Of a DNA stretch of 64,000 bases, positions 14,776 to 61,933 are shown piece after piece (positions within the stretch are counted from its first letter, which is position 1; the number at the start of each line of letters is the position of its first letter). The stretch is taken from the NCBI GenBank assembly GCA_016928305.1, contig JAFGKY010000152.1:266-64265 (forward strand), given 5' to 3'. The position numbers were made by a program, and so were the translations under genes. The notes beneath the pieces were generated by a model. That model worked only from the letters and a program-made list of their open reading frames with translations. It did not search any database and had not been told where the DNA came from. Source of the stretch: Bacteroidales bacterium (lineage in GTDB: Bacteria; Bacteroidota; Bacteroidia; Bacteroidales; UBA10428).

Positions 14776-14802
14776 AATCACTGCTATGTGTGATTAAAAT
14801 TA

Positions 14803-41850: not shown

Positions 41851-43845
41851 ATGAAACAGAATGGTAATCAGGCCGGTAAATCACGTAAAAACGGCCATTC
41901 CCTGACACCGAAATTCGGCCCCGTCGACAATCTTGAAAGTTATTTACAGCCCGACTGGTGGAGAAGGATATTTAACTCAATGTATTTAAAAACTGACGCC
42001 GACGTGGTTGAAGATAAACAAATCACCAACCGTGAAATTGACCTCTTCACAGGATTTCTTAATCTGGATAAAACAATGGTAATCCTTGATCTGGCCTGCG
42101 GCCAGGGACGTCATACCCTGGAGCTGGCCCGTCGGGGATTCCGGTTTGTCAATGGCCTTGACCGTTCGCATTATCTCATCCGTAAGGCTAAAAATATATG
42201 TGCATCCGAGGGTCTTTCAGCAAGTTTTAAAGAAGGTGATGCCAGGAAACTTCCATACCAGCCTGACACATTTGATGTGGTCATGATATTGGGTAATAGC
42301 TTTGGGTATTTTGAAAGTCTTGATGACGACATTAAAATCCTGAAGGAGGTCTTTAGGGTTTTGAAACCCAATGGCCGGTTTTTAATTGATGTTGCCGATG
42401 GAAATTATCTCCGGAACAATTTCAGCCCGCGCAGCTGGGAATGGATAGATAACAAGCATTTCGTATGCCGTGAACGTTCCCTGGCTTCCGACAATCAACG
42501 GCTGATTTCACGTGAAGTGATTTCCAATATCAACAAGGGAGTGATTGTAGACCAGTTTTATGCAGAGCGTTTGTATTCCCGGGAATCGCTGGAGGAAATA
42601 CTCTCCAAAAGCGGTTATAAGGAGATCAGTTTTCTGGGCAGTTATTCCACTGAATCCAGGCGCAACCAGGATCTGGGTATGATGGAAAGAAGGATAATTG
42701 CCACGGCAACGGCACGCAAGGAATGGACACCTGTCAGGGCTAAAAAAGCGGGACTTAAAACGGTAGCCGTTGTTATGGGCGATCCTGAAAGACCGGATAT
42801 CATTAAGCCAAGCAACGTATTTGACAAAGACGATATAGAAACCGTCATGAATTTGAAGATTGCACTGGGAGAACTTAAGGAATATCGTTTCATTTACCAG
42901 TCGAACCATACTACTTTGTTTAATGACCTGCAAAAGCTGAGGGGCAAAGTTGACTTTGTATTTAATTTATGCGACGAAGGCTTCAATAACGATCCGAGAA
43001 AGGAACTTCATGTTCCGGCTATGCTGGAAGTCCTGAATATTCCTTACACAGGTTCCAATCCGCAATGCCTGACCTATTGCTATGACAAATCACTTATCCG
43101 TGGTATAGCAAAAGAAATGGGAGCCCCTGTAGCAGATGGGCTTTATATTAAGCCTGAAGATAATGTCTTCGAGATGAATATTGACTTTCCGGTTATCATC
43201 AAACCCAATTTTGGTGACAGCAGTTTTGCCATAACAAGGGAAAGTGTTGCCTATAACCTCGAAGGGCTTAATGATGCCATTATCAGGATTCGTGAAAAAG
43301 TTGGTTATGAAAAACCCATTTTGCTCGAAGAGTTTCTTACCGGAAAAGACCTGACGGTTGGCATAATTGGTAATCCTCCGGATCCATACACATTCCTGCC
43401 GATTGTGGAAGAGGATTATTCTGATCTGCCCCCTGATTTGCCCAGGATTTGCGGATATGAAGCCAAATGGATCGTTGATTCACCGTATTTCAGATTGCTG
43501 AAATCCGTGCCGGCTAACCTTCCCGAAGAAACCGAGAAGGTAATCATGGAGCATTGTCTAAGGTTGTTTGAAAGACTGGATTGCAAAGATTATGTTCGGT
43601 TTGACTGGCGCCTCGATCAAAATGGTGCACCTAAATTGCTCGAGGTGAATCCCAATCCCGGATGGTGCTGGGATGGTCATTTGGCCAAGATGGCTGCCAT
43701 TAAAGGCATATCGTATCCGGAGATGCTGCTGAACATATTGCAGACAGCAGAACAACGGATCAACAACGAAATGCAGGGGGTGAAAACCGATGAAAAAAAA
43801 ATAGTAGAGACATTGCATGCAACGTCTCCATATAATGTTATTTAG
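41851..43845 (+). CDS. Fusion protein: class I SAM-dependent methyltransferase (N) + D-Ala-D-Ala-ligase-like ATP-grasp (C)
   Basis: 664-aa ORF. The methyltransferase motif I is ILDLACGQGRHT and post-I is VNGLDRS. The C-terminal half has Ddl-like ATP-grasp motifs (PVIIKPNFGDSS, LLEEFLTGKDLTV, LLEVNPNPGW). Confidence 0.8.
   Translation: MKQNGNQAGKSRKNGHSLTPKFGPVDNLESYLQPDWWRRIFNSMYLKTDADVVEDKQITNREIDLFTGFLNLDKTMVILDLACGQGRHTLELARRGFRFVNGLDRSHYLIRKAKNICASEGLSASFKEGDARKLPYQPDTFDVVMILGNSFGYFESLDDDIKILKEVFRVLKPNGRFLIDVADGNYLRNNFSPRSWEWIDNKHFVCRERSLASDNQRLISREVISNINKGVIVDQFYAERLYSRESLEEILSKSGYKEISFLGSYSTESRRNQDLGMMERRIIATATARKEWTPVRAKKAGLKTVAVVMGDPERPDIIKPSNVFDKDDIETVMNLKIALGELKEYRFIYQSNHTTLFNDLQKLRGKVDFVFNLCDEGFNNDPRKELHVPAMLEVLNIPYTGSNPQCLTYCYDKSLIRGIAKEMGAPVADGLYIKPEDNVFEMNIDFPVIIKPNFGDSSFAITRESVAYNLEGLNDAIIRIREKVGYEKPILLEEFLTGKDLTVGIIGNPPDPYTFLPIVEEDYSDLPPDLPRICGYEAKWIVDSPYFRLLKSVPANLPEETEKVIMEHCLRLFERLDCKDYVRFDWRLDQNGAPKLLEVNPNPGWCWDGHLAKMAAIKGISYPEMLLNILQTAEQRINNEMQGVKTDEKKIVETLHATSPYNVI
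43807..43828. repeat. Second copy of the GCATGC-centred palindrome (GAGACATTGCATGCAACGTCTC)
   Basis: One mismatch from perfect symmetry and 21/22 identical to 38099-38120. It lies in the last 13 codons of the MT-ATP-grasp ORF and 10 nt from the convergent DHS-like stop. Confidence 0.9.
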
Positions 43846-44860
43846 AAAATAATTTATTCCATTCGCGTCCGGTCCGCTTTTCCCATACCCGGCTGTGATA
43901 TGCATAACCGGCTATGAGTGGCAATACCGTGGTTGCTTCAGCATATACCATCTGTTCATACTTGGTGTCCACTTTACCCCATGATGATGCTTCCTGTAAG
44001 GTGGATGATGAACAGGCTCCATCCCTGACATCGGCAACGGTTATTTGTACGGCATATTTGTGAACCGGAACAGGTTTCCCGAGTATTTCAGCGCAAACAA
44101 CTACATCCTGGGCGAAATTCTTCGGAACGCCACCCCCGATCATAAATAATCCTGTAGTGTTGGCAGCAATCTTAATCATGGTAAGTTCCCTGAAATCTCT
44201 TACAGAATCAATGGTGACATGCCTGTCCGGACTTTCCCACTGGTGTTTAACGAGACCGAATCCGGCACTGCTGTCTGAAAAGGCGGGACAAAAAATCGGT
44301 ACATTATTCTCATAGGCAGCCTGCACGAGTGAATCCTTTTTTATCGAGTTTTTTATGAGATACTTTCCGAGTTCCTGGATGAATTCACGTGAGCTGTATG
44401 GACGTGGTTTCAGCGAATCAGCCACCAGTTTTATTGTGCCATCACATACCTGTAGGTCATCCTCATCTATGTATGTGTCGTAAATACGATCAATATAAAA
44501 TTCTCTCAGTTTTTTGTCGGGTATTTCCAGGTTGCCTCTGTAATGTCTGAAGCCAAGGGCTTCAAAGAAATCCATGTCAATAATGGAAGCGCCGGTGGCG
44601 ACAATTGCATCGATCATACGGTTTTTTACCATGTCAACATATACCTGCATACATCCTCCTGCGCTTGTGCTGCCAGCCAGGGTGAGAATAATGGTACATT
44701 CCTTGTCATTTAACATCCTCAGGTAAATGTCAGCAGCATTGGCCGTATCACGCGATGAAAATGACATCTTTCGCATGGAGTCAATAACCGTGGTTGGATC
44801 GAACGCTTTAATATCAATGTGTTCAATCGGCTCTTTCAATAATTCACGTTTTGCAGTCAT
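43838..44860 (-). CDS. Deoxyhypusine synthase-like (DHS/homospermidine-synthase family) protein
   Basis: 340-aa ORF with motifs LAGSTSAGG and ATGASIIDMDFFEALG. The catalytic-Lys context EASSWGKV is present. Its 3' end overlaps the convergent gene by 8 nt. Confidence 0.88.
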   Translation of the reverse strand: MTAKRELLKEPIEHIDIKAFDPTTVIDSMRKMSFSSRDTANAADIYLRMLNDKECTIILTLAGSTSAGGCMQVYVDMVKNRMIDAIVATGASIIDMDFFEALGFRHYRGNLEIPDKKLREFYIDRIYDTYIDEDDLQVCDGTIKLVADSLKPRPYSSREFIQELGKYLIKNSIKKDSLVQAAYENNVPIFCPAFSDSSAGFGLVKHQWESPDRHVTIDSVRDFRELTMIKIAANTTGLFMIGGGVPKNFAQDVVVCAEILGKPVPVHKYAVQITVADVRDGACSSSTLQEASSWGKVDTKYEQMVYAEATTVLPLIAGYAYHSRVWEKRTGREWNKLFSK

Positions 44861-45392: not shown

Positions 45393-45534
45393 CCTTACCG
45401 CAAAAAAGTAATCCGGTAAAAGGACGGTATAAAAATGACAGGGATTTTAAAGGATGGATTTTTCGCATATATGATCTTCATTTCTTAAGAATAACTGGTA
45501 TTGTCGCCGGGGGAAATATACTCAAATAATAAAG

Positions 45535-45602
45535 ATGTGTGAATTATGTAACTATTTCCAATAGTTATGTAATACTGTAGTTAATATATTGCCATACATT
45601 CG
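45535..45602 (+). promoter_or_regulatory. Operator-promoter module A (direct repeats 9-12-9 + 21 nt + -7-like box) upstream of GH130-GT4
   Basis: ATGTGTGAATTATGTAAC-tatttccaatag-TTATGTAAT lies at 45535-45573. After 21 nt comes TACATTCG at 45595-45602. This is one of four copies in the window. Confidence 0.75.
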
Positions 45603-45759: not shown

Positions 45760-46803
45760 ATGATAGAGGTTAAGAAAGAAGGTATAATATTAAAGAAAAC
45801 CCATTTTGAATTTGAAAACGAAGGTGTACTAAATCCCGCAGTAATGCGCGAAGGCGACAGCGTTCATCTTTTCTACCGGGCTGTGCGAAAAGGAAATCAT
45901 TCCAGTATTGGTTATTGCAGATTGGATGGGCCATTGACGGTTGCTGAACGGTGGAGTAAACCTTTCATGGTTCCTGAATTCGATTATGAATCACATGGTG
46001 TTGAAGATGCACGTATTGTAAAGATTGATGATCAGTTTTATATGACTTATACCGCTTATGATGGAACAAATGCCCGCGGAGCTTTAGCGACATCAAAAGA
46101 TTTAAAGCATTTTAAAAAGCAGGGGATGGTTGTTCCTCTCATCACGTATGCAGAATTTGTATTCCTTGCTGAATCTGCCGGTAGAGTAAATGAAAATTAT
46201 TACCGCAATCATAAGTTTTATTACCAGAAAGCAGATCCTGAAAAAAAAATAATGTTATGGGACAAAAATGTAGTTTTTTTCCCCCGAAAAATCAGTGGGA
46301 ATCTGGTATTCCTTCACCGGATCAGACCTGGCATTCAAATTGTTTCTGTAAACAGCATGCAGGAACTCACCAAAGAATATTGGGAAAAATATTTCCTCAA
46401 CCTGCAGGAACATATCGCCCTCGACCCTGTTTATCCGCACGAGTCATGCTACATTGGCAGTGGCTGTCCTCCAATTGAAACAGAACATGGATGGTTATTG
46501 ATTTATCACGGAGTGGAAGAAACCCACCATGGTATTGTTTATTCCGCCTGTGCTGCTTTACTTGACCTGGATGATCCTTCCAAAGAGCTGGCACGGCTTC
46601 CCCATGTATTGTTTTCACCGGAATATGAATGGGAATTGCATGGCGAGGTGAATAATGTAGTTTTTCCTACCGGTACCGCCCTGTTTGGGAATTCCTTATT
46701 TATTTATTATGGTGCGGCTGATACACATATTGCCTGCGCTTCGCTGAAATTATCGGAGCTGGTGGCCGAACTGTTAACTTATACTGCGAAAGATGAAAGA
46801 TGA
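45760..46803 (+). CDS. GH130-like glycosidase/phosphorylase family protein
   Basis: 347-aa ORF. The N-terminal pattern is FENEGVLNPAVMREGDSVHLFYRAV...IGYCRLDGPL and later motifs are EDARIVKIDDQFYMTYTAYDG and IYYGAADT, typical of the beta-propeller GH130-related family. Confidence 0.8.
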   Translation: MIEVKKEGIILKKTHFEFENEGVLNPAVMREGDSVHLFYRAVRKGNHSSIGYCRLDGPLTVAERWSKPFMVPEFDYESHGVEDARIVKIDDQFYMTYTAYDGTNARGALATSKDLKHFKKQGMVVPLITYAEFVFLAESAGRVNENYYRNHKFYYQKADPEKKIMLWDKNVVFFPRKISGNLVFLHRIRPGIQIVSVNSMQELTKEYWEKYFLNLQEHIALDPVYPHESCYIGSGCPPIETEHGWLLIYHGVEETHHGIVYSACAALLDLDDPSKELARLPHVLFSPEYEWELHGEVNNVVFPTGTALFGNSLFIYYGAADTHIACASLKLSELVAELLTYTAKDER

Positions 46804-49141
46804 AATCGTTTTAAATGAATTTGATTATAATATCGTGAATCAAATAGAATTGTCTGATATAAAAAGTTTAATTCATACAGGGATCATCCCTGAAATTAAA
46901 GGACAAAAACCGGACCGTGATAACACGAATGATCTTGCTGAAATTTTGTTTATTACTTCATATCCACCGCGGGAATGTGGCATAGCAACCTATTCTCATG
47001 ATTTGATTAAGGCGCTTAATAATAAATTCAGTAATTCATTATCCATAAAGGTTTGTGCATTGGAATCAGGAAATGCAAATTATGTCTATCCGAATGAAGT
47101 AAAATACATTCTCAATACCTCATTGGCTGCGGAATATGAAAAACTGGCATTAACTATAAATAAAGACAATCACATTAAAATCGTTTTAATCCAGCATGAA
47201 TTTGGCTTTTTCAACGCACAGGAACAGGCATTTATGCAATTTATATATATACTTTCAAAGCCGGTTGTTGTTGTTTTTCACACGGTACTGCCTCATCCTG
47301 ATGAAAAGTTGAAATCCAAAATAAAGAGTATTGCGGCTGTTTGCGGGTCAATCATCGTAATGACCCACAATTCGGCTAATATTTTAACGAATGAATATGA
47401 TTTGCCGCAACAAAAAATCTCAGTAATAGCCCACGGTACTCATTTGGTTCCCCATGTCAGTAAAAAATATTTGAAGATGAAATACGGACTAAAGGGCCGG
47501 AAAGTTCTTACTACATTTGGTCTGCTTAGTTCCGGAAAGAGCATAGAAACTACCCTTGAAGCATTACCTGCCATTGTTAAACTGATACCGGAAGTAATAT
47601 TTCTGATTATTGGCAAAACGCATCCCGAAATAAAAAAAGTAGAAGGAGAAGTGTACAGGGAAAGGTTGGAGCAAAAAGTTAAACACTTCACTCTTCAGGA
47701 TCATGTCATTTTTATTAATAACTATCTGCCATTACCGGATTTACTCGAATATTTGCAGCTTACCGATATTTACCTGTTTACCACCAACGATCCTAACCAG
47801 GCCGTAAGCGGCACTTTTGCTTATGCCATGAGTTGCGCCTGTCCTATCATTTCAACTCCCATTCCTCATGCAAGGGAAATACTGACTGAGGACACAGGAA
47901 TTATTTTTGATTTTCGAAACTCACAGCAATTATCGGATAGTGTTATCCGGTTACTCAACAATGAACCATTACGAAGGAATATTAGTTCAAATACGTTGCA
48001 GAAAATAGTTTCCACAGCCTGGGAAAATTCTGCCGCTGCACACGCCCTATTGTTCGAAAAAATGAGTGGAGGCAAAATTACAATACGCTATAATCTTCCA
48101 GCCATCAATCTGAACCATCTGAAACAAATGACGACCGGTACCGGGATCATTCAGTTTTCAAAAATCAATCAACCTGATATCGGTTCCGGTTATACCCTGG
48201 ATGATAATGCCAGGGCACTGATAGCCATGTGTATGTATTTTAAATTGACAGGTGATGAAAAGTGCGTTCATTACATCCGAAAATATCTCAGTTTTATAAA
48301 ACGATGCTTGCAGCCTGCCGGCGACTTTTTAAATTATGTAGATAAGGATAACAAATTTACCGGTCAAAACAAAGCCGTTAATTTGGATGACGCAAATGGA
48401 AGAGCTGTCTGGGCTTTAGGATATGCAGTATCATTAATGGGTCTGTTACCCTATGAAATTGTATCAGAGGCCATGACAAGCATTGAAAAATCCCTGCTTC
48501 GTATAGGTACAGTGCATTCTACAAGGGCTATGGCTTTCGCTATTAAAGGGATTTATTACTACTATAGCGCCATCAAGTCTCCTAAAAGTCTCATCCTTAT
48601 AAAAACATTCGCCGATCGTTTAGTTCAGATGTACAGGCATGAATCGAACAAAAAGTGGGAATGGTTTGAGAGTTATCTTACCTATGCCAACAGCATATTG
48701 CCTGAGGCCATGTTATATGCCTGGTTGATAACCGGAGATACCATTTATAAAGATATCGCCGGATCCTCGTTTAATTTTCTATTGTCTCAGACTTTTAATG
48801 AAAACGGGATTGAAGTAATTTCAAACAAAAACTGGCTGTTAAAGGGAAAAGAAGCAGAGCATTTTGGCGAACAACCCATAGATGTTGCATACACCATATT
48901 GGCATTAGGCACATTTTACGATGTATTTCAGATTGAAGATTATCGTGATAAGATGGAAATGGCGTTCAACTGGTTTTTAGGGAACAATCACTTGCATCAG
49001 ATTATTTATAACCCTTGTACTGGCGGATGTTACGACGGACTGGAGGAAACTCAGGTAAACCTCAATCAGGGAGCAGAGTCAACGGTAAGTTACCTGATGG
49101 CAAGATTAACCCTTGAACAGTATAAAGAGAGGTATCTTTAA
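46793..49141 (+). CDS. GT4-family glycosyltransferase fused to a ~380-aa C-terminal alpha/alpha-toroid-like domain
   Basis: 782-aa ORF that overlaps GH130 by 11 nt. The GT4 core covers roughly residues 50-420 (LLSSGKSIE..., ...SGTFAYAMSCACPIISTP). The C-terminal half has six-hairpin-like motifs (YTLDDNARAL, GRAVWALGY, NQGAESTVSYLMA). Confidence 0.8.
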   Translation: MKDEIVLNEFDYNIVNQIELSDIKSLIHTGIIPEIKGQKPDRDNTNDLAEILFITSYPPRECGIATYSHDLIKALNNKFSNSLSIKVCALESGNANYVYPNEVKYILNTSLAAEYEKLALTINKDNHIKIVLIQHEFGFFNAQEQAFMQFIYILSKPVVVVFHTVLPHPDEKLKSKIKSIAAVCGSIIVMTHNSANILTNEYDLPQQKISVIAHGTHLVPHVSKKYLKMKYGLKGRKVLTTFGLLSSGKSIETTLEALPAIVKLIPEVIFLIIGKTHPEIKKVEGEVYRERLEQKVKHFTLQDHVIFINNYLPLPDLLEYLQLTDIYLFTTNDPNQAVSGTFAYAMSCACPIISTPIPHAREILTEDTGIIFDFRNSQQLSDSVIRLLNNEPLRRNISSNTLQKIVSTAWENSAAAHALLFEKMSGGKITIRYNLPAINLNHLKQMTTGTGIIQFSKINQPDIGSGYTLDDNARALIAMCMYFKLTGDEKCVHYIRKYLSFIKRCLQPAGDFLNYVDKDNKFTGQNKAVNLDDANGRAVWALGYAVSLMGLLPYEIVSEAMTSIEKSLLRIGTVHSTRAMAFAIKGIYYYYSAIKSPKSLILIKTFADRLVQMYRHESNKKWEWFESYLTYANSILPEAMLYAWLITGDTIYKDIAGSSFNFLLSQTFNENGIEVISNKNWLLKGKEAEHFGEQPIDVAYTILALGTFYDVFQIEDYRDKMEMAFNWFLGNNHLHQIIYNPCTGGCYDGLEETQVNLNQGAESTVSYLMARLTLEQYKERYL

Positions 49142-49209
49142 TCCAGAAATTGATACCAAAAGGTTAATAAATCAATCATTATATAAAACTCGCATAAAAA
49201 TCAATTAAT

Positions 49210-49395
49210 ATGGAAATTAAATTTGATATCATTTATTGGAATGAACTTAAAAGCAAACTCAATGAGAAATACCCCGTATTAACAAATTCCGATTTGCTGT
49301 GGAGAAATGGTACAGAAGAAGATTTGTTAAGGATGATAGCGCTTAAGCTGAGAAAAACAAAGAAAGAACTGCAGGCAATAATTGAAAGTTTTTAA
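49210..49395 (+). CDS. Small CsbD-like stress protein (weak similarity)
   Basis: 61-aa ORF. The pattern W.ELK.KL.EKYP.LT.SDL....GTEEDLL..IA.KL.KTKKEL resembles the CsbD family layout. Confidence 0.4.
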   Translation: MEIKFDIIYWNELKSKLNEKYPVLTNSDLLWRNGTEEDLLRMIALKLRKTKKELQAIIESF

Positions 49396-49488
49396 CCGTC
49401 AATGAAGATTGTAGTCTTAGAAATAACCAATAATTTAATAAGTATTCAGTATATCGGATATTAAAGCTGATGTCTCAGTTTTAATATG

Positions 49489-49496
49489 TATCTTTG
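49489..49496 (+). promoter_or_regulatory. Bacteroidota -7 box TATCTTTG upstream of csp
   Basis: Exact TAnnTTTG match, 23 nt upstream of the ATG at 49519. It argues against the track start at 49486. Confidence 0.45.
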
Positions 49497-49518
49497 TAAA
49501 ATAATTAAATATCATATT

Positions 49519-49710
49519 ATGAATAACGGAACAGTAAAATTTTTTAATGACTCGAAAGGATTCGGATTTATTAAGGACGCAAATTCAGCGAAAGAGTATT
49601 TTGTACATTCCTCCGGATTACAGGAAAGTATCACGGAGAATGATGAAGTAACGTTCGATCTCGAACAAGGAAAAAAAGGTTTAAATGCAGTAAATGTTAA
49701 ACTAGCTTAG
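49519..49710 (+). CDS. Cold-shock domain protein (CspA family)
   Basis: 63 aa from the ATG at 49519, beginning MNNGTVKFFNDSKGFGFI (RNP1) with FVHSS (RNP2). Confidence 0.9.
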   Translation: MNNGTVKFFNDSKGFGFIKDANSAKEYFVHSSGLQESITENDEVTFDLEQGKKGLNAVNVKLA

Positions 49711-49740
49711 TTTATATATTATAAAACATTTAAAATTTCA

Positions 49741-49767
49741 AGCCTCATGTTAAGTGAGGCTTTTTTT
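49741..49767 (+). terminator. Rho-independent terminator after csp
   Basis: AGCCTCA...TGAGGCT stem (49741-49761) followed by a T7 run. Confidence 0.75.
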
Positions 49768-49819
49768 ATTAAAATCTATGACTGATTTGAAAATTAGGAT
49801 AACACCCAGGTATCAGAAA

Positions 49820-49887
49820 ATGTGTGAATGATGTAATTTTTTCCCAATCTTATGTAACAAACAGGCCGAATTAAGATAGTACATTTA
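49820..49887 (+). promoter_or_regulatory. Operator-promoter module B upstream of the DUF302 gene
   Basis: ATGTGTGAATGATGTAAT-tttttcccaatc-TTATGTAAC lies at 49820-49858. After 21 nt comes TACATTTA at 49880-49887. Confidence 0.75.
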
Positions 49888-50048
49888 TGTAGTTTATTCT
49901 CACGGTACAAATTAAATAATGTGCATTAATTTGACTTTTATCGGGGTGATGAATTTTTTTGATGAAAATTATATCCGGACAAAGATCCCGATCACTTTAT
50001 CCGGAATACCTTTAAGGAACAATTTTGGAAACGAAAAATAAGGGTGAA

Positions 50049-50474
50049 ATGATTTATTATATTAATACAAAACTCCATGCCAGTTTTGAACAAACCGTTC
50101 ATTTTGTCACGGAAGCATTGAAAGTTGAAGGCTTTGGGATTCTGACCGAGATAGATATGCACGAAAAACTGAAGGAAAAACTTGGTGTTGATTTCCGGAA
50201 ATACAAGATTCTGGGTGTGTGCAGCCCGCTTCATGCCTATAAAGCCCTTCAGAAAGATGATAAAATCGGGACCCTGTTACCCTGTAATATTATTATCCAG
50301 GAACTCGCCAGCAACGAGGTTGAAGTTGCCACAGCCGATCCGGTTGCATCCCTGTTGGCTGTCGAAGATTCAGCACTGGCTAACATGGCAAAAGAAATCC
50401 GGGAAAAATTAACCCGGATCATCAGGTCTCTAAAGGATAAAGGTCGTATTCGTTATAACACCTTGAACGGATAA
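50049..50474 (+). CDS. DUF302 domain protein
   Basis: 141 aa from the ATG at 50049 (the track uses the TTG at 50025). The DUF302-like pattern is FEQTVHFVTEALKVEGFGILTEIDMHEKLKEKLGVDFRKYKILGVCSP. Confidence 0.8.
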   Translation: MIYYINTKLHASFEQTVHFVTEALKVEGFGILTEIDMHEKLKEKLGVDFRKYKILGVCSPLHAYKALQKDDKIGTLLPCNIIIQELASNEVEVATADPVASLLAVEDSALANMAKEIREKLTRIIRSLKDKGRIRYNTLNG

Positions 50475-50945: not shown

Positions 50946-50971
50946 AAACAAAAACGCAGCCGTATGCTGCG
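50946..50971 (-). terminator. Rho-independent terminator candidate after the cupin gene
   Basis: CGCAGC (50955-50960) and GCTGCG (50966-50971) form the stem. TTTTTG follows on the minus strand. Confidence 0.5.
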
Positions 50972-51026
50972 CTTAAAATGCAAGTTTAAATCCTGTAATT
51001 TTCTAACAGGTGTTTTATTGCATTAA

Positions 51027-51377
51027 TTATATTATGCTTCCTTCATAACCACTTTTAATAATGGTTGAAATCATTTTAAACCGTTCATTGGCCTTAACAA
51101 TATTTGATGTATGAGCCGGTATTATTATTGCCTGTCCTGTTTGAAGCATATTCGATTTTTCATCAATCACGACTTCGGCTTTACCCTCAATAATTTGAAG
51201 ATAGGTGTCAAAAGGAGAAATCTTCTCTGCCAACGTTTCACCTGTATCAATGGCCACAATACAAATATTCCCGGTGGTTTTACGGATTATAGTTTTGGTT
51301 ACAACCGAATTAGCGACATACTCGATAATTTCAACCAGGGCATGCGTTTTAGATTTTTCAAATTCGTTAGTTTGCAT
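51027..51377 (-). CDS. Cupin domain protein
   Basis: 116-aa ORF with a small beta-barrel pattern (...DTYLQIIEGKAEVVIDEKSNMLQTGQAIIIPAHTSNIV). Confidence 0.75.
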   Translation of the reverse strand: MQTNEFEKSKTHALVEIIEYVANSVVTKTIIRKTTGNICIVAIDTGETLAEKISPFDTYLQIIEGKAEVVIDEKSNMLQTGQAIIIPAHTSNIVKANERFKMISTIIKSGYEGSII

Positions 51378-51402
51378 GTGTTTACTCTATGAGTATTTAC
51401 AT

Positions 51403-51470
51403 TAAAAGTACGTCAACGGATTTACGAAAGTGTTATACAATTGATAGTTTAATTTACATCATTCACACAT
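51403..51470 (-). promoter_or_regulatory. Operator-promoter module C upstream of the cupin gene
   Basis: On the minus strand ATGTGTGAATGATGTAAA-ttaaactatcaa-TTGTATAAC lies at 51470-51432. After 21 nt comes TACTTTTA at 51410-51403. The module starts 10 nt after the radical-SAM stop. Confidence 0.75.
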
Positions 51471-51479
51471 TTCACAACG

Positions 51480-52976
51480 CTAAGCGGTTTTTTTATTTCG
51501 CAAACCATAAACCATTTGATAATGGTAGCCATAAACTGTATAGGTTATAGCATCAACAATGGATCCGGGCCGGTTGAAAAGGGTCCATAGCAATAATTTC
51601 CAGTATTCACTTCTTCCTCTGTTCAGGAAGCCTATAATATAAACCGATTTAAAGAAAGCCCCCAGAAGTGAAAAGTTAATTTTGGTCTGCCTGTACTTAA
51701 ACCGGTTATAATTCAATAACAACTGGCGTATCCTTTTATAATAAGGCTTGGTTGCATAGATATTATGAATAATTTCTTTATACCCTTTTATAAGTTCACT
51801 TTGATTCATTTTGGGTATGAAATTCATGGAATAATCGGTGTTGTTTCCGGTGGCTTCGGTTGTCAGCCTGTTTTCTACTTCCAACCGTTTGTACAGCCTT
51901 GTATTTTTGGGCGCATTTAACAGTCCGACCATAGCCGATACAATTCCACTTTTTTGTATAAAATCAATTTGTCTTTGAAAAACACTTGGCGTATCACTAT
52001 CAAAACCCACAATAAAACCGCCTGACACATGCATTCCAGCCTTTTGTATTTTAATTACACTTTGTAACAGATCGCGGTTTACATTCTGGTTCTTATTGCA
52101 CTCATGAAGTGAATTTTCATCCGGTGTTTCTATGCCAACAAAGGTGGAGTTAAAACCGGCTTGCACCATCAGTGACATTAATTCCTCGTCGTCAGCCAGA
52201 TTAATGGAAGTTTCGGTATTAAAAACAAACGGGTACTGATGTGCCTGCATCCAATCTTTAATTACCGGGAGTAAACTATTCTTTATCACGTTTTTGTTTC
52301 CAATAAAATTATCGTCAACAATTAATACCGATCCACGCCAATTGAGCTTATACAGCTTTTCAAGCTCGTTTATTATTTGTTCCTTTTTCTTCATTCTGAC
52401 CTTATGCCCCAGCAGTGTTGTTATTTCACAAAAATCACAGGCATAAGGACATCCCCGCGAAACCTGGATATTCATAAAGGCATAGTCTTTCCTTGACAAC
52501 AAATGGTAATCCGGTATCGGGGTATGTGTAATATCAGCATATTCTGCAGTCTTATAAAGTTTTTGCGGATGACCTGCATGCAGATCATTTAAAAACTGAG
52601 GTAAGGTAATTTCAGCTTCATTCAGGACAAAATGATCAATTTGGGGATAGCTTTTATAGTCCTGGGTAAAAAGAGGCCCGCCGGCAACAATTTTCGTATT
52701 GTGTGTTTTACATTCATCAATGATTAAATTAACCGATTCTTTTTGTATGTACATGGCACTTATAAAGACATAATCGGCCCATTGGATGTCACTTGTACGA
52801 AGGGTTGCAACATTCAGATCCACCAGCTTTTTCTGCCACGTCGACGGGAGCATTGCCGATACAGTTATCAATCCTAAGGGTGGTACAGCTGCTTTTTTCG
52901 ATATAAACTTTAACACATGGCTATAACTCCAAAACGAATTTGGATAACGCGGATAAATTAACAGTATTTTCATCAT
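51480..52976 (-). CDS. B12-binding-domain radical SAM protein (DUF4070-type C-terminus)
   Basis: The ATG-ATG at 52976/52973 gives MMKILLIYPRYP. It has an N-terminal B12-binding-like Rossmann domain, the CxxxCxxC motif (CPYACDFC) and a C-terminal extension. The track TTG at 53012 is less likely. Confidence 0.85.
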   Translation of the reverse strand: MMKILLIYPRYPNSFWSYSHVLKFISKKAAVPPLGLITVSAMLPSTWQKKLVDLNVATLRTSDIQWADYVFISAMYIQKESVNLIIDECKTHNTKIVAGGPLFTQDYKSYPQIDHFVLNEAEITLPQFLNDLHAGHPQKLYKTAEYADITHTPIPDYHLLSRKDYAFMNIQVSRGCPYACDFCEITTLLGHKVRMKKKEQIINELEKLYKLNWRGSVLIVDDNFIGNKNVIKNSLLPVIKDWMQAHQYPFVFNTETSINLADDEELMSLMVQAGFNSTFVGIETPDENSLHECNKNQNVNRDLLQSVIKIQKAGMHVSGGFIVGFDSDTPSVFQRQIDFIQKSGIVSAMVGLLNAPKNTRLYKRLEVENRLTTEATGNNTDYSMNFIPKMNQSELIKGYKEIIHNIYATKPYYKRIRQLLLNYNRFKYRQTKINFSLLGAFFKSVYIIGFLNRGRSEYWKLLLWTLFNRPGSIVDAITYTVYGYHYQMVYGLRNKKTA

Positions 52977-53068
52977 TACTTTTATAATTGGCGATCCGCT
53001 TATATATGGCAAGTAAGGTCAGCAGATGAATAACAATGCCGGTTATTAATTTTATAATAGTTGGAATA

Positions 53069-53136
53069 CAAAAATAATGAGACAAAGCAACCGGATTATT
53101 ACATAATTTCAGGAAAAGCTTACATAATTCACACAT
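53069..53136 (-). promoter_or_regulatory. Operator-promoter module D upstream of the radical SAM gene, overlapping the AraC stop codon
   Basis: On the minus strand ATGTGTGAATTATGTAAG-cttttcctgaaa-TTATGTAAT lies at 53136-53098. After 21 nt comes the exact TATTTTTG box at 53076-53069. The regulator's TGA stop is the TGA inside ATGTGTGAA. Confidence 0.8.
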
Positions 53137-53668
53137 TTTCCAGTGTACCCCGCCGCTTATTTTTGAGTTTTTTAAAGTATGAAGGGGTTAACCCGGTAAA
53201 TTTTTTAAATTGATTTGACAAATGGGCTACACTGCTATAATGCAATTTATATGCTATTTCGGTGAGATTAAGTTCATCGTATACCAGCAGCTCTTTTACT
53301 TTTTCTATTTTATGTGTAAGATAAAATTTTTCGATTGTAATCCCTTTAACCTCCGAAAAAAGATTGGCCAGATAAGTATAATCGTAGTTGAGTTTTTCAC
53401 TCAGGTAGTCCGAAAGGTTCACCCTGATTTGCTCTTCTGTATAGTGTACCAGTTCGATAATAGCACTTTTAATTTTCTCAACCAGAATACTTCTTTTATT
53501 ATCCATCAGAAGAAGTCCTGATGTTTTTAAAGCGATATCCAACTGCTTCACTTGTTCCGGTGAGATATCTTCAATGATATCCGCCTCTCCGATTTTTACA
53601 TCAACATAACGGATACCAAGTTTTTCCAGCTCGGATTTTACTACCATCTGGCAACGGATACAGACCAT
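53129..53668 (-). CDS. AraC-family transcriptional regulator with N-terminal HMA-like (CxxC) domain
   Basis: The ATG at 53668 gives MVCIRCQMVVKSELEKLGI..., a ferredoxin-like HMA pattern with CIRC. The C-terminal AraC HTH reads LTEIAYKLHYSSVAHLSNQFKKFTGLTPSYF. The track start at 53752 adds 28 unlikely residues. Confidence 0.8.
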   Translation of the reverse strand: MVCIRCQMVVKSELEKLGIRYVDVKIGEADIIEDISPEQVKQLDIALKTSGLLLMDNKRSILVEKIKSAIIELVHYTEEQIRVNLSDYLSEKLNYDYTYLANLFSEVKGITIEKFYLTHKIEKVKELLVYDELNLTEIAYKLHYSSVAHLSNQFKKFTGLTPSYFKKLKNKRRGTLENV

Positions 53669-53722: not shown

Positions 53723-53787
53723 GTCAAAGACAAAGTTATGAAAATTATGCAAGGAGTTGATTTATAATCGTTGGCTTTGTCTTTGAC
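53723..53787. repeat. 13-bp perfect inverted repeat flanking TTATG-type boxes upstream of the AraC gene
   Basis: The arms are GTCAAAGACAAAG (53723-53735) and CTTTGTCTTTGAC (53775-53787). The 39-nt interior starts TTATGAAAATTATGCAAG. Confidence 0.7.
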
Positions 53788-53834: not shown

Positions 53835-55370
53835 TTATTGCCTGTCGAAAACCATCGTAATATTGTGTTTCCTCCAGAATGAAGAAGAATATTGCTGAAT
53901 GGAAAGAATGCTGTTCTTTTCCTGAAGTGTCCAACGTTCCTCAGTGAAGATCTCATATTGTCGATCACCCCATAATACGTTTACTTTTGATTGAATGACA
54001 AGGGTATCCCTGCTTTGATTGAACTGAGCGGTTGTTATTCGCGGAAAATTCATAAAGGCCGATCTGTTTTCTTTTCCGTCAAGGGTCAGTTTTTCCTCCG
54101 TTGTTCGGTCATCCGCATATTCTAAAATGACAGTACGTTTAATGGCAAGTTCATTTTCGTTTTGTACAATTTCAATTTTAAAAGGCAGGTTGCTGGCTCC
54201 AAAATTGTCCAGCATACTCTTTTCTTCATTGAAAATCCATTTACCTGTAAAATCCACAGGCATAATAACCGGTTCGGGTATTGGAGGTAAACCACAGGAT
54301 GCCCGGTATTGTATCATAATATTCCTGTACACAACATCTTCCAGGCTTAGTACACGGGGATCATTGACCAGTACATGGTATTGTTTCTTCAGCGTATTTC
54401 TGACCATCCCGGCCCATGTAACATATAATCCCCATTTTGGCTGGCTGTCGAGTATTTCGAGTGAAGGCGGGTTACCTACTTCAGCAAGTATGAGTGGTTT
54501 ACCGGTTGACAAAGCCAGCAGACTGTCATAATATACCTGGTTGAAATCATTTCTGTAAACGTCGAGTGCTAATACATCGAGATACGTATTGCCCGGATGA
54601 AAGTAAGAAAACTGCATTTCGGGCTTATTTGGCCTGTCAACGCTCCATACCCAGATAAGGTTGGTAAGTTTGTGATGGTTGACAAATCGTAAAAACAATT
54701 GCCGGTAAAGCATAGTTGTACTATACTCACCGGTGTGTCCTCCCCACCAGAACCAGTCACCATTCATCTCATGGTATGGTCGCCAGAGGACAGGGACACG
54801 GGCCTCCTGAAGTTTATTAAGGTATTTGGCGATACTGTCAACCTGGGCACACCAGCGCTTGTACAGTGAAGTGCCCGGTGTAAGCACATCCCTGAATTGC
54901 CCGTCCGGCAACCTGCCCTGTATGCTGGCAAGGGAATCGGGCCGGTCCGAAGATTTTGGCCTGAACGTTACAGGTTCATCAGCGGTTGGAGGCACTGCAT
55001 GCCAGCATATAGTGATAATTGAGCCCAGATGGTGTTGCCGTATACATTCTTTAACGATATCCGGTCGGGCAAGGTAGGAATCCGTATCTCCGTCCCTGGC
55101 AAATCCCCAGTCAGTGCTGAAAACAGCAGGGGTTTTCCCAATAAAGCCGGCAGCAAAACGTGTGTTCCTGTCCCTGATGTTGGGATAGTTATGCTGACCG
55201 GTAAGGGTATAATGACCCGATACGGAATATAAAAGATGCAACAGCGCTCTTGCTTCGGGTGAAGCATTGGGAGTAACCGGTTCAGGAGCAACAGGCTGGC
55301 CAGGCAGTATTGAACAATACAACCATGAACTTGCTGACAGCAATATGAATATCTTTTGTCGGAATATCAT
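53835..55370 (-). CDS. GH26-family beta-mannanase-like glycoside hydrolase with C-terminal lipocalin-like domain
   Basis: 511-aa ORF with a signal peptide and the GH26 signature LWRPYHEMNGDWFWWG. Confidence 0.8.
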   Translation of the reverse strand: MIFRQKIFILLSASSWLYCSILPGQPVAPEPVTPNASPEARALLHLLYSVSGHYTLTGQHNYPNIRDRNTRFAAGFIGKTPAVFSTDWGFARDGDTDSYLARPDIVKECIRQHHLGSIITICWHAVPPTADEPVTFRPKSSDRPDSLASIQGRLPDGQFRDVLTPGTSLYKRWCAQVDSIAKYLNKLQEARVPVLWRPYHEMNGDWFWWGGHTGEYSTTMLYRQLFLRFVNHHKLTNLIWVWSVDRPNKPEMQFSYFHPGNTYLDVLALDVYRNDFNQVYYDSLLALSTGKPLILAEVGNPPSLEILDSQPKWGLYVTWAGMVRNTLKKQYHVLVNDPRVLSLEDVVYRNIMIQYRASCGLPPIPEPVIMPVDFTGKWIFNEEKSMLDNFGASNLPFKIEIVQNENELAIKRTVILEYADDRTTEEKLTLDGKENRSAFMNFPRITTAQFNQSRDTLVIQSKVNVLWGDRQYEIFTEERWTLQEKNSILSIQQYSSSFWRKHNITMVFDRQ

Positions 55371-58944: not shown

Positions 58945-59308
58945 TATCTTACTGCTTTTTAAATGCATATTATTTGCCGTCAGTTTACATCTTTCATGTA
59001 CGATGAAGCGTTGTCATAAGATTTCCTGGTTAAATTAATCCAAATTTTACAGCGGTGCAATCGACTGATCAAATCCATCTTTTTTTACATGTGTGGTATG
59101 AATAAAATCCTCCTGAATAAAGCTGCCGTTAATTAGTTGATTCGGAGCGTATGAGGATCGGTATACTTCCCCGCTGGTTGCGGCGGGTTTGTTCATTAAA
59201 AAAGAACGATGGATTCAATGTGTTGTTGATGTGTTTTCATCCTGTTTCCCGTTCGGATTATTTTTATTAATTTCAAAGATGCTTTTTCATTTCTTAAATA
59301 CTTATAAT

Positions 59309-61933
59309 ATGTATACCAGATTTTTAGCAACGGTTATATTCTTCGTTCTTACGATGGAATGTTTCACTCCCTATGCCAATGCTCAGTTTCAAACGGCCAG
59401 GATATTCACAAGCGGTATGGTGTTGCAGCGCGACCTCGAGATTCCGGTTTGGGGAACCGCGGGTGTAGGGGATACGGTGATTGTAATCCTGAATGCGGTT
59501 TCTGATTCCGCATTTGCCGATAGTGAAGGAAAGTGGGAAGCAAGACTTCCGGTGATGACTGCAGGTGGACCGTATACCATGACACTTGTATGCAAAGGTA
59601 ATACACTGACCCGCACAAATGTATATATCGGGGATGTATGGCTTGCAGCTGGGCAGTCGAATATGGAATTCAAATTAAGCCAGAGCGATGGAGCCGCAGC
59701 GGAAATAGCCGGTGCCTCTAATGATTCCTTGCGTCAGTTTCTGATACAAAATACACTGGGCAATGAACCGGCTGAAGATGTGCCTGCAGGCAGTGCATGG
59801 ACGGCTGCTGTTTCGGCCACTGTCGGTAATTTCACTGCCGTGGGGTACTATTTTGCCCGCGATCTTCAGCAGGTGATTGGTGTTCCCATTGGTATTATCA
59901 ATGCATCAAAAGGTGGCGCACGCATCGAAACCTTTATGAGCGAAGAAATGCTGGGATATGATGAACAGGATGTTACCCTTGCTTCGGGAGAAAATGAAAG
60001 ACAACCAACGGTGGCTTTTAATACCCTGATAAATCCCTTGCTTCGTGTGCCGATGAAAGGTATTATCTGGTACCAGGCCGAGTCAAACGGTGATAATATG
60101 GAGGATGCACTATCCTATGGCTATCTGTTTAAAAAATTGATTGTTGCATATCGTAATTTATGGGGATTGGGAGATATCCCTTTTCTTTGGGTACAGCTTC
60201 CTTCGCAGGGGGCTGCTGCGGTGGAAAGTTCTCCCAATGCCTGGGATGCCTGGCCCAGGCTAAGGGCTGCACAGAGCAGGGCATTGGCGTTGCCCAACAC
60301 GGGTGAAGCCACGACCATTGATGTTGGTGATGTGGATATACACCCTACTCATAAGGAACCGGTGGGGCACCGGTTGTCACTGGTTGCACGCAAGGTTGCC
60401 TATGGCGAAGATATCGTATATTCCGGTCCCCGGTATAACGGTCATACCCTTTCCATAGACGGTCGTGTTAAAATAGGATTTGATCATACAGGAGGAGGTC
60501 TTGTCGCAAAGAACTCGGTCAATGATTCCATTCACTGGTTCTCTGTGGCCACAGCTGACGGAACATTATATCCTGCCAAAGCCGTTCTTGAAGGTGACTC
60601 CGTTGTCGTATGGAATGAAGAAGTTACTGAACCTGCAATAATACGCTATGCATGGGAATATAATCCTGAGAATGTGAATTTCTATAATGCAGAAGATCTG
60701 CCTGCAGTGCCCTTTCTGATAAACACCGTCAATCCCGGCTTTGGAATAAAGTCGTTCACAACTACGGACTCAACTATTGAAAGATGGAAGAGCGCTGTTC
60801 TGTCATGGGAAGTGTACGGTACATCATCCGTGACCTTGAACGGCGAACCGGTCGATTCCATCGACGGGATCAGGATATTCCCGACGGATACCACTGAATA
60901 TATACTTATTGCAGTTAACAGGAATAATGCAAGTAACAACATAGCCGATACCATAACCATAAACGTAATTGAACCCTTGCCCACCATTACGCTGAAATCC
61001 GATCAGGGGGACATTGTTGATCCGGGAACCGAAATCACCTTCACAGCAGACCTGACCATTCCTGCAGGCTTAACCATTGTGAAGGTCGAATTTTTTGTTG
61101 ATGATGTTTTACTGTTTTCCGATACTGAAGCCCCTTATGAAACAAAATGGACCACTCCCGATGCGGGTGAGTACAACATCAAAGCGGCCGTTACGGATGC
61201 CAACAGCGCTGTTGTTGAATCAAACACCATAAACTTGCTGGTGACAAACGTCTCGGTGTTAACATTCGAGGCTGAAAATGCTGCCCGTACCGGGAGCGGA
61301 ACAGTGAAAAGCAGTTCCCTGGCCAGCGGTGGGAAATATGTAGATATGACTGACGCCTGGACCCTTACCTTCAGCGGGATAAATGTTCCGGAAACAAAGG
61401 AATATCAATTGAGCATCCGGTATCTTCTGAATTATGAATCACCCAAAACCCAGAATTTAAAGATCAACGGCACACTTTTTTCAAGCATTGAATTTACGGC
61501 TCCCAATACCACAACCTGGATGACATACAGGCTAAATATTCCATTGGCTGCGGGCGAAAATGTAATTGTCATTGAAGGCGTGTGGAACTGGATGAGTTTT
61601 GATTATATTGCCATAGCCGGGGAGGGACTGACAGGCATAGAAGATGTTGAAGCGGATCAGCCTGCTGATCATGTGCTGATTCATAACATCCCGAATCCGT
61701 TTTCAAAGTCAACCCGTATCGTATATTCGCTGGCTGAGCCGGGACATGTGTTGCTGGAAGTGTATGATATGGCCGGAAAGGAAGTAACACAATTGGTTAA
61801 CGGGATCAAGATGGCAGGAACACACACCTGTTGGTTCACTACCGGGGGAGACCTGCCCGACGGAGTTTACCTGGCAAGGCTAAACTTCAACAACAGGGTG
61901 ATGGCAAGACGAATGCTGTTGATCAGGGAATAA
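59309..61933 (+). CDS. Sialate O-acetylesterase-family (SASA/GDSL-like) esterase with Ig-like, CBM-like and T9SS C-terminal sorting domains
   Basis: The ATG at 59309 gives the signal sequence MYTRFLATVIFFVLTM. It has GDVWLAAGQSNME and WYQAESN motifs. It also has Ig-like repeats and a CBM6/35-like module (LTFEAENAARTGSG...). The T9SS CTD reads IPNPFSKSTRIVYSL...GVYLARLNFNN. Confidence 0.85.
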   Translation: MYTRFLATVIFFVLTMECFTPYANAQFQTARIFTSGMVLQRDLEIPVWGTAGVGDTVIVILNAVSDSAFADSEGKWEARLPVMTAGGPYTMTLVCKGNTLTRTNVYIGDVWLAAGQSNMEFKLSQSDGAAAEIAGASNDSLRQFLIQNTLGNEPAEDVPAGSAWTAAVSATVGNFTAVGYYFARDLQQVIGVPIGIINASKGGARIETFMSEEMLGYDEQDVTLASGENERQPTVAFNTLINPLLRVPMKGIIWYQAESNGDNMEDALSYGYLFKKLIVAYRNLWGLGDIPFLWVQLPSQGAAAVESSPNAWDAWPRLRAAQSRALALPNTGEATTIDVGDVDIHPTHKEPVGHRLSLVARKVAYGEDIVYSGPRYNGHTLSIDGRVKIGFDHTGGGLVAKNSVNDSIHWFSVATADGTLYPAKAVLEGDSVVVWNEEVTEPAIIRYAWEYNPENVNFYNAEDLPAVPFLINTVNPGFGIKSFTTTDSTIERWKSAVLSWEVYGTSSVTLNGEPVDSIDGIRIFPTDTTEYILIAVNRNNASNNIADTITINVIEPLPTITLKSDQGDIVDPGTEITFTADLTIPAGLTIVKVEFFVDDVLLFSDTEAPYETKWTTPDAGEYNIKAAVTDANSAVVESNTINLLVTNVSVLTFEAENAARTGSGTVKSSSLASGGKYVDMTDAWTLTFSGINVPETKEYQLSIRYLLNYESPKTQNLKINGTLFSSIEFTAPNTTTWMTYRLNIPLAAGENVIVIEGVWNWMSFDYIAIAGEGLTGIEDVEADQPADHVLIHNIPNPFSKSTRIVYSLAEPGHVLLEVYDMAGKEVTQLVNGIKMAGTHTCWFTTGGDLPDGVYLARLNFNNRVMARRMLLIRE

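Follow-up and report, generated by a model that had tools for sequence, protein, structure and literature searches.

Four copies of one long sequence motif occur in a 64,000-nucleotide stretch of DNA from a Bacteroidales bacterium (assembly GCA_016928305.1, contig JAFGKY010000152.1, forward-strand positions 266 to 64,265), the whole of which we call the window. Each copy precedes a gene that is read from the same strand, and one of them contains the stop codon of a gene for an AraC-type regulator whose N-terminus resembles heavy-metal-associated (HMA) domains. The question raised by this locus is which protein acts at these sites, whether it switches the downstream genes on or off, and what these genes have in common. 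An earlier note, made without database searches, took the sites to be operators of a metal- or ligand-sensing regulator that serves a single functional module. We consider it probable, with some reserve, that two copies of the HMA-AraC protein bind head to tail to the bipartite site and activate sigma-A promoters without a -33 element, on a signal received via the HMA-like domain or a partner. We also infer that the gene island in the window is the regulator-proximal part of a dispersed regulon of general-stress type rather than a self-contained pathway.

Bacteroidota dominate guts, sediments, soils and polar habitats. The phylum is not known to have RpoS, sigma-B or EcfG. The locus offers a candidate regulator from an uncharacterised family, a 45-bp DNA signature with which the regulon of any genome could be listed, and a promoter architecture that is open to direct test, and in this way the question of a Bacteroidota general stress regulator becomes testable. 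Our literature search found nothing on proteins with both HMA and AraC domains, on a general stress regulator of Bacteroidota or on this motif; by its DNA-binding domain the protein is a member of the AraC/XylS family, and it is the combination of an HMA-like sensor domain, an AraC domain, a phylum-wide motif and a stress-type regulon that we did not find described in the papers searched.

The motif and its linkage to the regulator gene

The 18-nt core of the motif, AATGTGTGAATKATGTAA, occurs four times in the 64 kb, compared to 0.27 occurrences expected, at 45534 and 49819 on the plus strand (sites A and B) and at 51471 and 53137 on the minus strand (sites C and D). With a 48-nt weight matrix trained on other genomes only, the four sites score 45-57 bits (A, 45534-45572, 50.6; B, 49819-49857, 44.7; C, 51433-51471, 56.9; D, 53099-53137, 48.7), and the runner-up elsewhere in the window reaches 7 bits. 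The site is bipartite, AATGTGTGAATnATGTAA-N16-TGTAA, and forms a 21-bp direct repeat; site D reads AATGTGTGAATTATGTAA-N16-TGTAA and site C, which has the top score among the window's sites, reads AATGTGTGAATGATGTAA-N16-TATAA. Site A precedes the GH130-GT4 genes, site B a DUF302 gene, site C a cupin gene and site D a radical SAM gene. On the minus strand between 53.7 and 50.9 kb the order is the AraC-type gene, site D, the B12-binding/radical SAM/DUF4070 gene, site C, the cupin gene and a terminator-like hairpin. Both this order and the nature of the genes had been described in the earlier note and are confirmed by Pfam and PDB matches and by the sequence.

The last two sense codons of the regulator gene and its stop codon (AAT GTG TGA) are at the same time the first 9 nt of site D, with the TGA at 53131-53129 lying inside the core of that site (53137-53120), just as had been noted before; the distance from the stop codon of the radical SAM gene to site C, previously given as 10 nt, is 8 nt. 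We examined this overlap in 80 loci from named genomes and metagenome-assembled genomes (MAGs) of Marinilabiliales/Bacteroidales, where the regulator is 74-92% identical. The motif (up to 3 mismatches) begins in the regulator's last three codons in 68 of the 80, and one more case is masked by a frameshift. The sites are also one-sided: 47 loci extend the full 10 kb to either side of the gene, and of the 112 sites in them only 4 are not downstream of the start of the regulator gene, which marks one edge of a motif-rich island. Clustering of all open reading frames (ORFs) of the related loci found the regulator in 81 loci, a histidine kinase in 11 and a LytTR-like membrane protein in 6, and no second regulator that is conserved in the islands. 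The arrangement is kept in a distant Bacteroidota MAG (L204) whose regulator is 48% identical and has the loop MKSERC. There the motif still overlaps the stop codon, further copies stand before the regulator gene, before a cupin gene and before a radical SAM gene with DUF4070, and the island also carries GH130, GT4, DUF5670, Usp and a second HMA-AraC gene. The stop-codon overlap, the one-sided sites, the presence of only one conserved regulator and the persistence of the arrangement at 48% identity make a strong case, of the kind standard in comparative genomics, for this regulator as the candidate factor at the site; the earlier note had already considered it the most economical candidate for the four sites.

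Paralogous HMA-AraC genes (MVSxRC type, 55-62% identical) have the motif upstream and PAS sensor genes downstream, which suggests a regulatory cascade. Paralogues followed by PAS-domain sensor genes are located at L063 3068-3604, L076 10709-11245, L067 14739-15324 and L071 14905-15490, and among these four the motif precedes those of L063 and L076. As a covariation test, the DNA that follows the stop codons of the paralogues was searched for variant motifs, and none was found.

The geometry of the motif relative to the promoter is rigid. TAnnTTTG is the -7 element of the Bacteroidota housekeeping promoter. Alignment of the four window copies and then of 173 sites from 81 related loci gives the consensus gAAAATGTGTGAATgATGTAA-N11-AATTgTGTAAcA followed by TAccTTTa. 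The 173 sites, found with at most 2 mismatches in 1.41 Mb, compare to roughly 0.2 expected by our estimate. A second T[GA]TAA box is present at +34, exactly 21 bp after the first, in 151 of the 173 sites, and an exact TAnnTTT is found at +61 in 100 of them; 8 further sites have it at +60, and the background frequency per position is 0.3%. In the window the corresponding boxes are TATTTTTG of the radical SAM promoter (53069-53076, minus strand), at an offset of 61 nt from where site D begins; TACTTTTA of the cupin promoter (51403-51410, minus strand), recognised by sequence and by its phasing to site C; TACATTCG downstream of site A (45595-45602, plus strand); and TACATTTA downstream of site B (49880-49887, plus strand). 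The conserved block spans about -70 to -30 and its proximal box covers the -33 position, 27 nt upstream of the -7 box, and the consensus of the 173 sites contains no TTTG or TTG element at the usual distance from the -7 box. The TAnnTTTG consensus is cited in PMC7641319. Because they are phased to the -7 box and cover -33, a class II layout, the sites are better described as predicted activator-type sites than, as in the earlier note, as operators in the repressor sense. Such a rigid promoter could serve as an inducible part for Bacteroidota genetics.

The promoters do not have the -35/-10 pair of an alternative sigma factor; they retain the housekeeping box TAnnTTTG at a fixed offset, and the conserved element reaches to about -60, beyond the range in which a sigma factor could recognise it. 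A scan of the whole window with Rfam at gathering thresholds gave no matches. It is improbable that the motif is an RNA element; it is located upstream of the -7 box and is probably not transcribed from its own promoter. A scan for promoters of the E. coli sigma-70 type was uninformative (29 found, 33.8 expected).

To remove the bias of a search that starts from the regulator, we scanned a metagenome collection with the motif alone and obtained 137 sites, which are distributed over 120 contigs. Of 136 sites, 81 have the AAT prefix and 40 have a -7 box at +61 or +60; the search pattern included neither feature, and their strong enrichment marks these sites as genuine.

The HMA-AraC protein

The C-terminal AraC DNA-binding domain, recognised as such in the earlier note, matches PF12833 with 60.4 bits (cut-off 33.6; 2e-16) and PF00165 with 43.1 bits (cut-off 26.6). 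The start of the gene had been placed at the ATG at 53668, corresponding to 179 aa, but the seven codons before it (VKLYIQN, from GTG 53689) are conserved as [LVM]K[IL][YF]IKN in 79 orthologues and form strand beta-1 of the N-terminal fold, and for this reason the gene most likely comprises 53689-53129 on the minus strand and encodes 186 aa. The start codon at this position is TTG in 61 of the 79 orthologues, GTG in 12, ATG in 5 and CTG in 1. Gene callers often annotate the 179-aa ATG version without beta-1 of the HMA fold, because about 74 of the 79 use a start codon other than ATG.

The AlphaFold2 model of the full-length protein has a predicted local distance difference test (pLDDT) score of 91.9 and a predicted template modelling (pTM) score of 0.84, and consists of a beta-alpha-beta-beta-alpha-beta fold at residues 2-62, a long helix at 65-83 and a seven-helix AraC domain. 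When the N-terminal 69 residues are modelled alone (pLDDT 84.8), nearly all of the top 12 Foldseek matches in the PDB are HMA domains with template modelling (TM) scores of 0.60-0.71, among them TTHA1718, CopZ, CopA, HMA7, Atx1, PacS and HAH1, and ACT and other ferredoxin-like folds rank below them. A profile of 69 family members likewise matches the HMA domains of CopA, ATP7B and CopZ (E 1e-4 to 2e-3). The HMA-like N-terminus claimed before is thus borne out by profile, model and structural matches, and the domain is predicted to fold as HMA, so that the refutation which the earlier note had foreseen on this point did not occur. The AraC domain matches AraT, YesN, GadX, MarA and SoxS in Foldseek, the last two superposing at TMt 0.73-0.75.

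The sequence M-V-C-I-R-C is located in the beta-1/alpha-1 loop and is invariant among the 74-92% identical orthologues. Over 61 representatives of the wider family, the first cysteine of MxCxxC is retained in 35 and replaced by Ser in 21 and by other residues in 5, and the second is retained in 60 of 61. As judged from this alignment, a CxxC metal clamp does not appear to be required family-wide, and a single reactive cysteine may be. The proposal that the protein senses a metal or a ligand is therefore weakened in its metal part: the first cysteine is Ser in 21 of 61, including the distant orthologue with the same motif and island, and metal genes do not dominate among the targets. Compared with the HMA domains of CopZ, Atx1 and CopA, the domain has the same fold and, in the orthologue group of the window, the same M-x-C-x-x-C in the same loop, but it is fused to a DNA-binding domain, has Ser in place of the first Cys in about a third of the family representatives and occurs without a metal-handling context.

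There are more than 8000 homologues that share words with the regulator, and those of Marinilabiliales/Bacteroidales are 74-92% identical across the group. The family includes at least 488 clusters (50% identity) at E up to 1e-30. It carries only generic names in Bacteroidota, several copies per genome are common, and the regulator reaches no curated family in NCBIfam. The median identity in the 24 loci that have all three genes is 82% for the regulator, 72% for the SAM enzyme and 77% for the cupin. Family members with 44-63% identity are present on large secondary replicons of Cytophagia. A mobile element was considered as an explanation of the high conservation and is not favoured: members on secondary replicons exist, but the window is chromosomal in character, encoding BamA, UppS, AlaRS and OmpH.

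The gene has its own -7 box, TAACTTTG, at 53731-53738 on the minus strand, and a similar box, TAACTTTA, is visible upstream of many orthologues. Neither a core search nor a matrix scan found the motif upstream of this promoter in the window. With a consensus -7 box of its own and no motif upstream, the regulator is probably made constitutively, in which case control would act on the protein.

Proposed mechanism and competing explanations

We infer from sequence comparison the binding of the protein to the sites, activation rather than repression, the response of the regulon to stress, and the entry of the signal via the HMA-like domain or a partner. The regulator would be made from its near-consensus sigma-A promoter, mostly with a weak TTG or GTG codon as its start. 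Once active, it would bind head to tail as two copies, one at AATGTGTGAATnATGTAA and the other at the second TGTAA box one 21-bp period downstream; this promoter-proximal box, exactly 27 nt upstream of TAnnTTTG, would stand in for the missing -33 element. From there the protein would recruit RNA polymerase in the manner of XylS, RhaS or MarA/SoxS at class II promoters. Four units would be switched on in the window, namely the radical SAM gene, the cupin gene, GH130-GT4 (probably together with the genes for the 61-aa protein and the cold-shock protein) and DUF302. Elsewhere in Bacteroidota this predicted site precedes genes for CsbD, DUF5670, BON, Mn-catalase, YceI, hibernation factor, Usp, Band-7, MlaE, OmpA-like and ice-binding proteins and HMA-AraC paralogues. 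The signal would enter via the HMA-like domain, possibly at its one family-wide cysteine, or via a partner such as the cupin.

The 21-bp direct-repeat layout is also used by AraC at araI and by XylS at Pm. The likeness to the class II activators XylS, AraC and RhaS includes the C-terminal double helix-turn-helix and the two direct repeats with a 21-bp period, the proximal one over -35/-33. The HMA-AraC protein differs from them in that it has only 186 aa and a 62-residue HMA-like domain in place of a cupin or other effector domain, with a stand-alone cupin encoded alongside rather than fused; its promoters are of the Bacteroidota sigma-A type with the -7 element TAnnTTTG and its targets are of stress type rather than a catabolic operon. 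MarA, SoxS and Rob are also small AraC-family proteins with dispersed stress regulons, and they use asymmetric sites of ~20 bp at fixed promoter positions. MarA and SoxS lack a sensor domain, and their control is exerted through their synthesis; the HMA-AraC protein differs in its sensor-like domain, in a promoter that is apparently constitutive and in the tandem arrangement of its predicted site.

Several points weigh against the proposed mechanism. The 179-aa ATG-start version of the regulator has no Pfam HMA match at E up to 0.01. The model's long and apparently rigid linker helix fits poorly with two copies on a direct repeat that pair symmetrically through their HMA domains, and a site that covers the -33 position could equally serve a repressor. 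The term stress regulon is derived from gene names rather than from physiology. The site is assigned to the HMA-AraC protein by co-localisation only. Among the motif-only metagenome sites just 5 of 137 abut an AraC gene, and 19 of the 120 contigs, which are short, carry a homologue. It is possible that another global factor acts at the motif.

This last possibility corresponds to an alternative that we consider unlikely, in which a global regulator encoded elsewhere, Crp/Fnr-like or of LytTR type, binds the motif and the HMA-AraC protein is merely a frequent member or neighbour of its regulon. Apart from the metagenome sites, most of which are not beside an AraC gene, it is favoured by TGTGA within the core, which is a CRP-type half-site, by the 21-bp direct-repeat period, which fits LytTR regulators as well, and by the LytTR-like membrane protein of about 6 islands. 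However, the motif is not a CRP-type palindrome in the site alignments, the islands contain no other conserved regulator, and no LytTR or Crp domain is present among the window ORFs that were scanned; moreover, over the range of 48-92% identity the motif stays linked to the HMA-AraC gene, both in its overlap with the stop codon and in the one-sided placement of the sites. A LytTR regulator encoded elsewhere, which the earlier note had left room for, is retained at this low probability, with LytTR-like proteins in about 6 of 81 islands.

We give similarly little credit to the reverse sign of control, i.e., that the HMA-AraC protein is a repressor that occludes the -33 position of otherwise active promoters and is released by a stress signal. 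The position of the site over -33 would allow this, as would the near-consensus -7 boxes (TATTTTTG at site D; TAnnTTT in 62% of sites) and the consensus promoter of the regulator itself, with which the protein is probably always present. Against repression, phasing to the -7 box at the level of a single base is typical of activators that contact the polymerase, as is established for AraC/XylS, MarA and SoxS, the consensus has no TTTG or TTG at the expected distance from the -7 box, and most members of the AraC family are activators.

Targets, island genes and neighbourhood

Synteny was counted in 83 related loci. In 65 of the 83 a cupin gene follows the regulator, either immediately or behind the SAM gene; a GT4 of about 740 aa is found in 49, a radical SAM gene in about 35 (mostly between regulator and cupin), a cold-shock protein in 31, GH130 in 28, the 61-aa protein in 15 and DUF302 in 2. 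A survey of neighbourhoods had been suggested as a check on the co-occurrence of these genes, and it is positive for the SAM enzyme, cupin, GT4 and GH130, which co-localise with the regulator, and largely negative for DUF302. The first ORF after the 173 sites is a cupin in 61 cases, the SAM enzyme in 27 and DUF5670 in 21; fewer sites precede 61-aa proteins like that of the window, Band-7, cold-shock, ribosome hibernation factor and KaiC-like proteins, outer-membrane beta-barrels, HMA-AraC paralogues and, in one locus, a membrane desaturase. Genes downstream of the motif in the metagenome sample most often encode CsbD (18), MlaE permease (10), ice-binding-like proteins (9), OmpA-family lipoproteins (9), DUF5670 (5), cupin (4) and PAS kinases (4), and also BON, Mn-catalase, YceI, DUF326, a 287-aa sigma-70-type factor and HMA-AraC paralogues. 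Genes for metal efflux or uptake are at most rare among the targets, the only case being one DUF326 gene, which we take to be of the four-helix-bundle copper-binding type.

CsbD, BON/OsmY, Mn-catalase, YceI, hibernation factor, Usp and small membrane proteins belong to the gene set of the general stress regulons of other phyla. Gene content is alike in the regulons of sigma-B (Firmicutes), EcfG/PhyR (Alphaproteobacteria) and RpoS (Gammaproteobacteria); these use alternative sigma factors, whereas the motif promoters keep the housekeeping -7 box and add an upstream activator-type site. That a metal-sensing regulator controls one biosynthetic module for a single compound, made up of the SAM enzyme, cupin, DUF302 and GH130/GT4, is very improbable even though these genes share the motif in the window, are syntenic in many loci and are accompanied by an intact MxCxxC in all close orthologues, because the SAM gene is missing from more than half of the islands and was deleted in one lineage that retains the rest, DUF302 occurs in hardly any of them, unlike cupin and GT4, which remain, unrelated stress proteins prevail in the regulon, the first cysteine is not conserved in the family and metal transport genes are scarce. 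A more far-reaching version of the activator reading, which we put forward tentatively and regard as on balance doubtful, is that the HMA-AraC protein is the master activator of the Bacteroidota general stress response, triggered by thiol oxidation or a ligand at the invariant cysteine, with the cupin as feedback partner and the SAM enzyme as a stress-induced modifier, possibly of membrane lipids since it adjoins a membrane desaturase in several genomes.

The lineage that lost the SAM gene is represented by a Prolixibacteraceae genome. At L006 10532-10800 (L003 is the same place), a degraded site D at the regulator stop is followed by a remnant of the 3'-end of the SAM gene (codons ...EYWKLVIWTLFNRPDA...), then by site C, which is intact, and the cupin gene.

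Genes of the ice-binding family (PF11999) recur often among the motif targets (L206, L093, L095, L117, L168, L180 and L182). On the Runella rosea plasmid NZ_CP030852.1 (L206 7025-9561) an HMA-AraC gene lies next to a PF11999 gene in divergent orientation, with two degenerate motif copies between them. These targets may link the regulon to freezing or cold, and they tie ice-binding proteins to a defined control element. Several proteins without assigned function likewise gain a regulatory context from the motif, namely the radical SAM enzyme with DUF4070, the small cupin, DUF5670, DUF302 and the 780-aa GT4.

The radical SAM enzyme (51480-52976, minus strand, 498 aa) has its CxxxCxxC as CPYACDFC and matches DUF4070 (2e-34) and Radical_SAM PF04055 (2e-13, 51.2 bits, cut-off 29.5) in Pfam; the match to B12-binding PF02310 is at 32.1 bits, equal to the cut-off of 32.1, and is marked weak in homologues. 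Its best NCBIfam scores are all below cut-off (PhpK family 92.6 vs 600, HpnJ 60.9 vs 577.6, HpnR 41.5 vs 650), a PDB sequence search gives weak matches only (AprD4, 1.4e-7) and no substrate clue, and homologues that are 74-88% identical carry generic names only. The architecture of B12-binding, radical SAM and DUF4070 domains has been described for HpnP and HpnP-like proteins (PMC10697835), the only enzymes for which we found literature discussing DUF4070. The window enzyme shares this three-domain architecture, with a borderline match for the B12-binding domain, reaches no curated model, and has no hopanoid genes nearby. A second SAM-DUF4070 copy, 65-67% identical, adjoins a membrane fatty-acid desaturase in five to seven genomes. 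In genomes of the Maribellus/Draconibacterium type this copy is located upstream of the regulator (L001 3967-7735; ~6100-9900 in L014, L016, L036 and L080), between a 281-aa LytTR-like membrane protein and the desaturase, and no motif precedes the copy in L001. A lipid substrate for the enzyme is a guess that we make with low confidence.

The cupin (51027-51377, minus strand, 116 aa) is the most constant neighbour of the regulator and its most constant predicted target. It matches PDB entries 3rns ("Cupin 2 conserved barrel", 5e-13) and 1yhf (1e-10) and scores 20.4 with Pfam Cupin_2, below the cut-off of 27.2, and it resembles structural-genomics cupins without assigned function; a putative role as the regulator's partner or feedback element is conceivable. 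A terminator-like hairpin with a 9-bp stem and a T run follows at 50952-50974 on the minus strand. Like the SAM enzyme, the cupin, DUF302, GH130 and GT4 proteins reach no curated NCBIfam family.

On the plus strand, the probable operon of site A spans 45760-49710 by gene order, has no internal motif sites and is closed by a terminator-like hairpin at 49740-49762. It comprises GH130 (45760-46803), GT4 (46793-49141, 782 aa), a 61-aa protein without a Pfam match (49210-49395) and a cold-shock-domain protein (49486-49710); a scan with the 48-nt matrix found no weaker motif copies before the last two genes. About 350 C-terminal residues of the window's GT4 have no Pfam match. The GT4 of most islands, ~740 aa, is a different protein, 33% identical to that of the window, and L054 and L063 carry the window type together with its GH130. 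Site B is followed by the gene for the DUF302 protein (50025-50474, plus strand), identified by Pfam and a rare member of the islands.

The island is flanked by genes for a GH26 enzyme (53835-55370) and a SASA/CBM35 esterase (59189-61933), both without the motif, which together with GH130 hint at a mannan-related neighbourhood. ARAGORN found neither tRNA nor tmRNA in the window. At 41851-44860 the gene for a 664-aa fusion of a SAM-methyltransferase and a D-Ala-D-Ala-ligase-type ATP-grasp domain adjoins, on the opposite strand, that of a deoxyhypusine-synthase homologue (PF01916, 1.8e-93), an unusual pairing for a bacterium. Finally, a 994-aa protein encoded at 11797-14781 combines a receiver domain with a PPDK_N (PEP-utilising, ATP-binding) domain.

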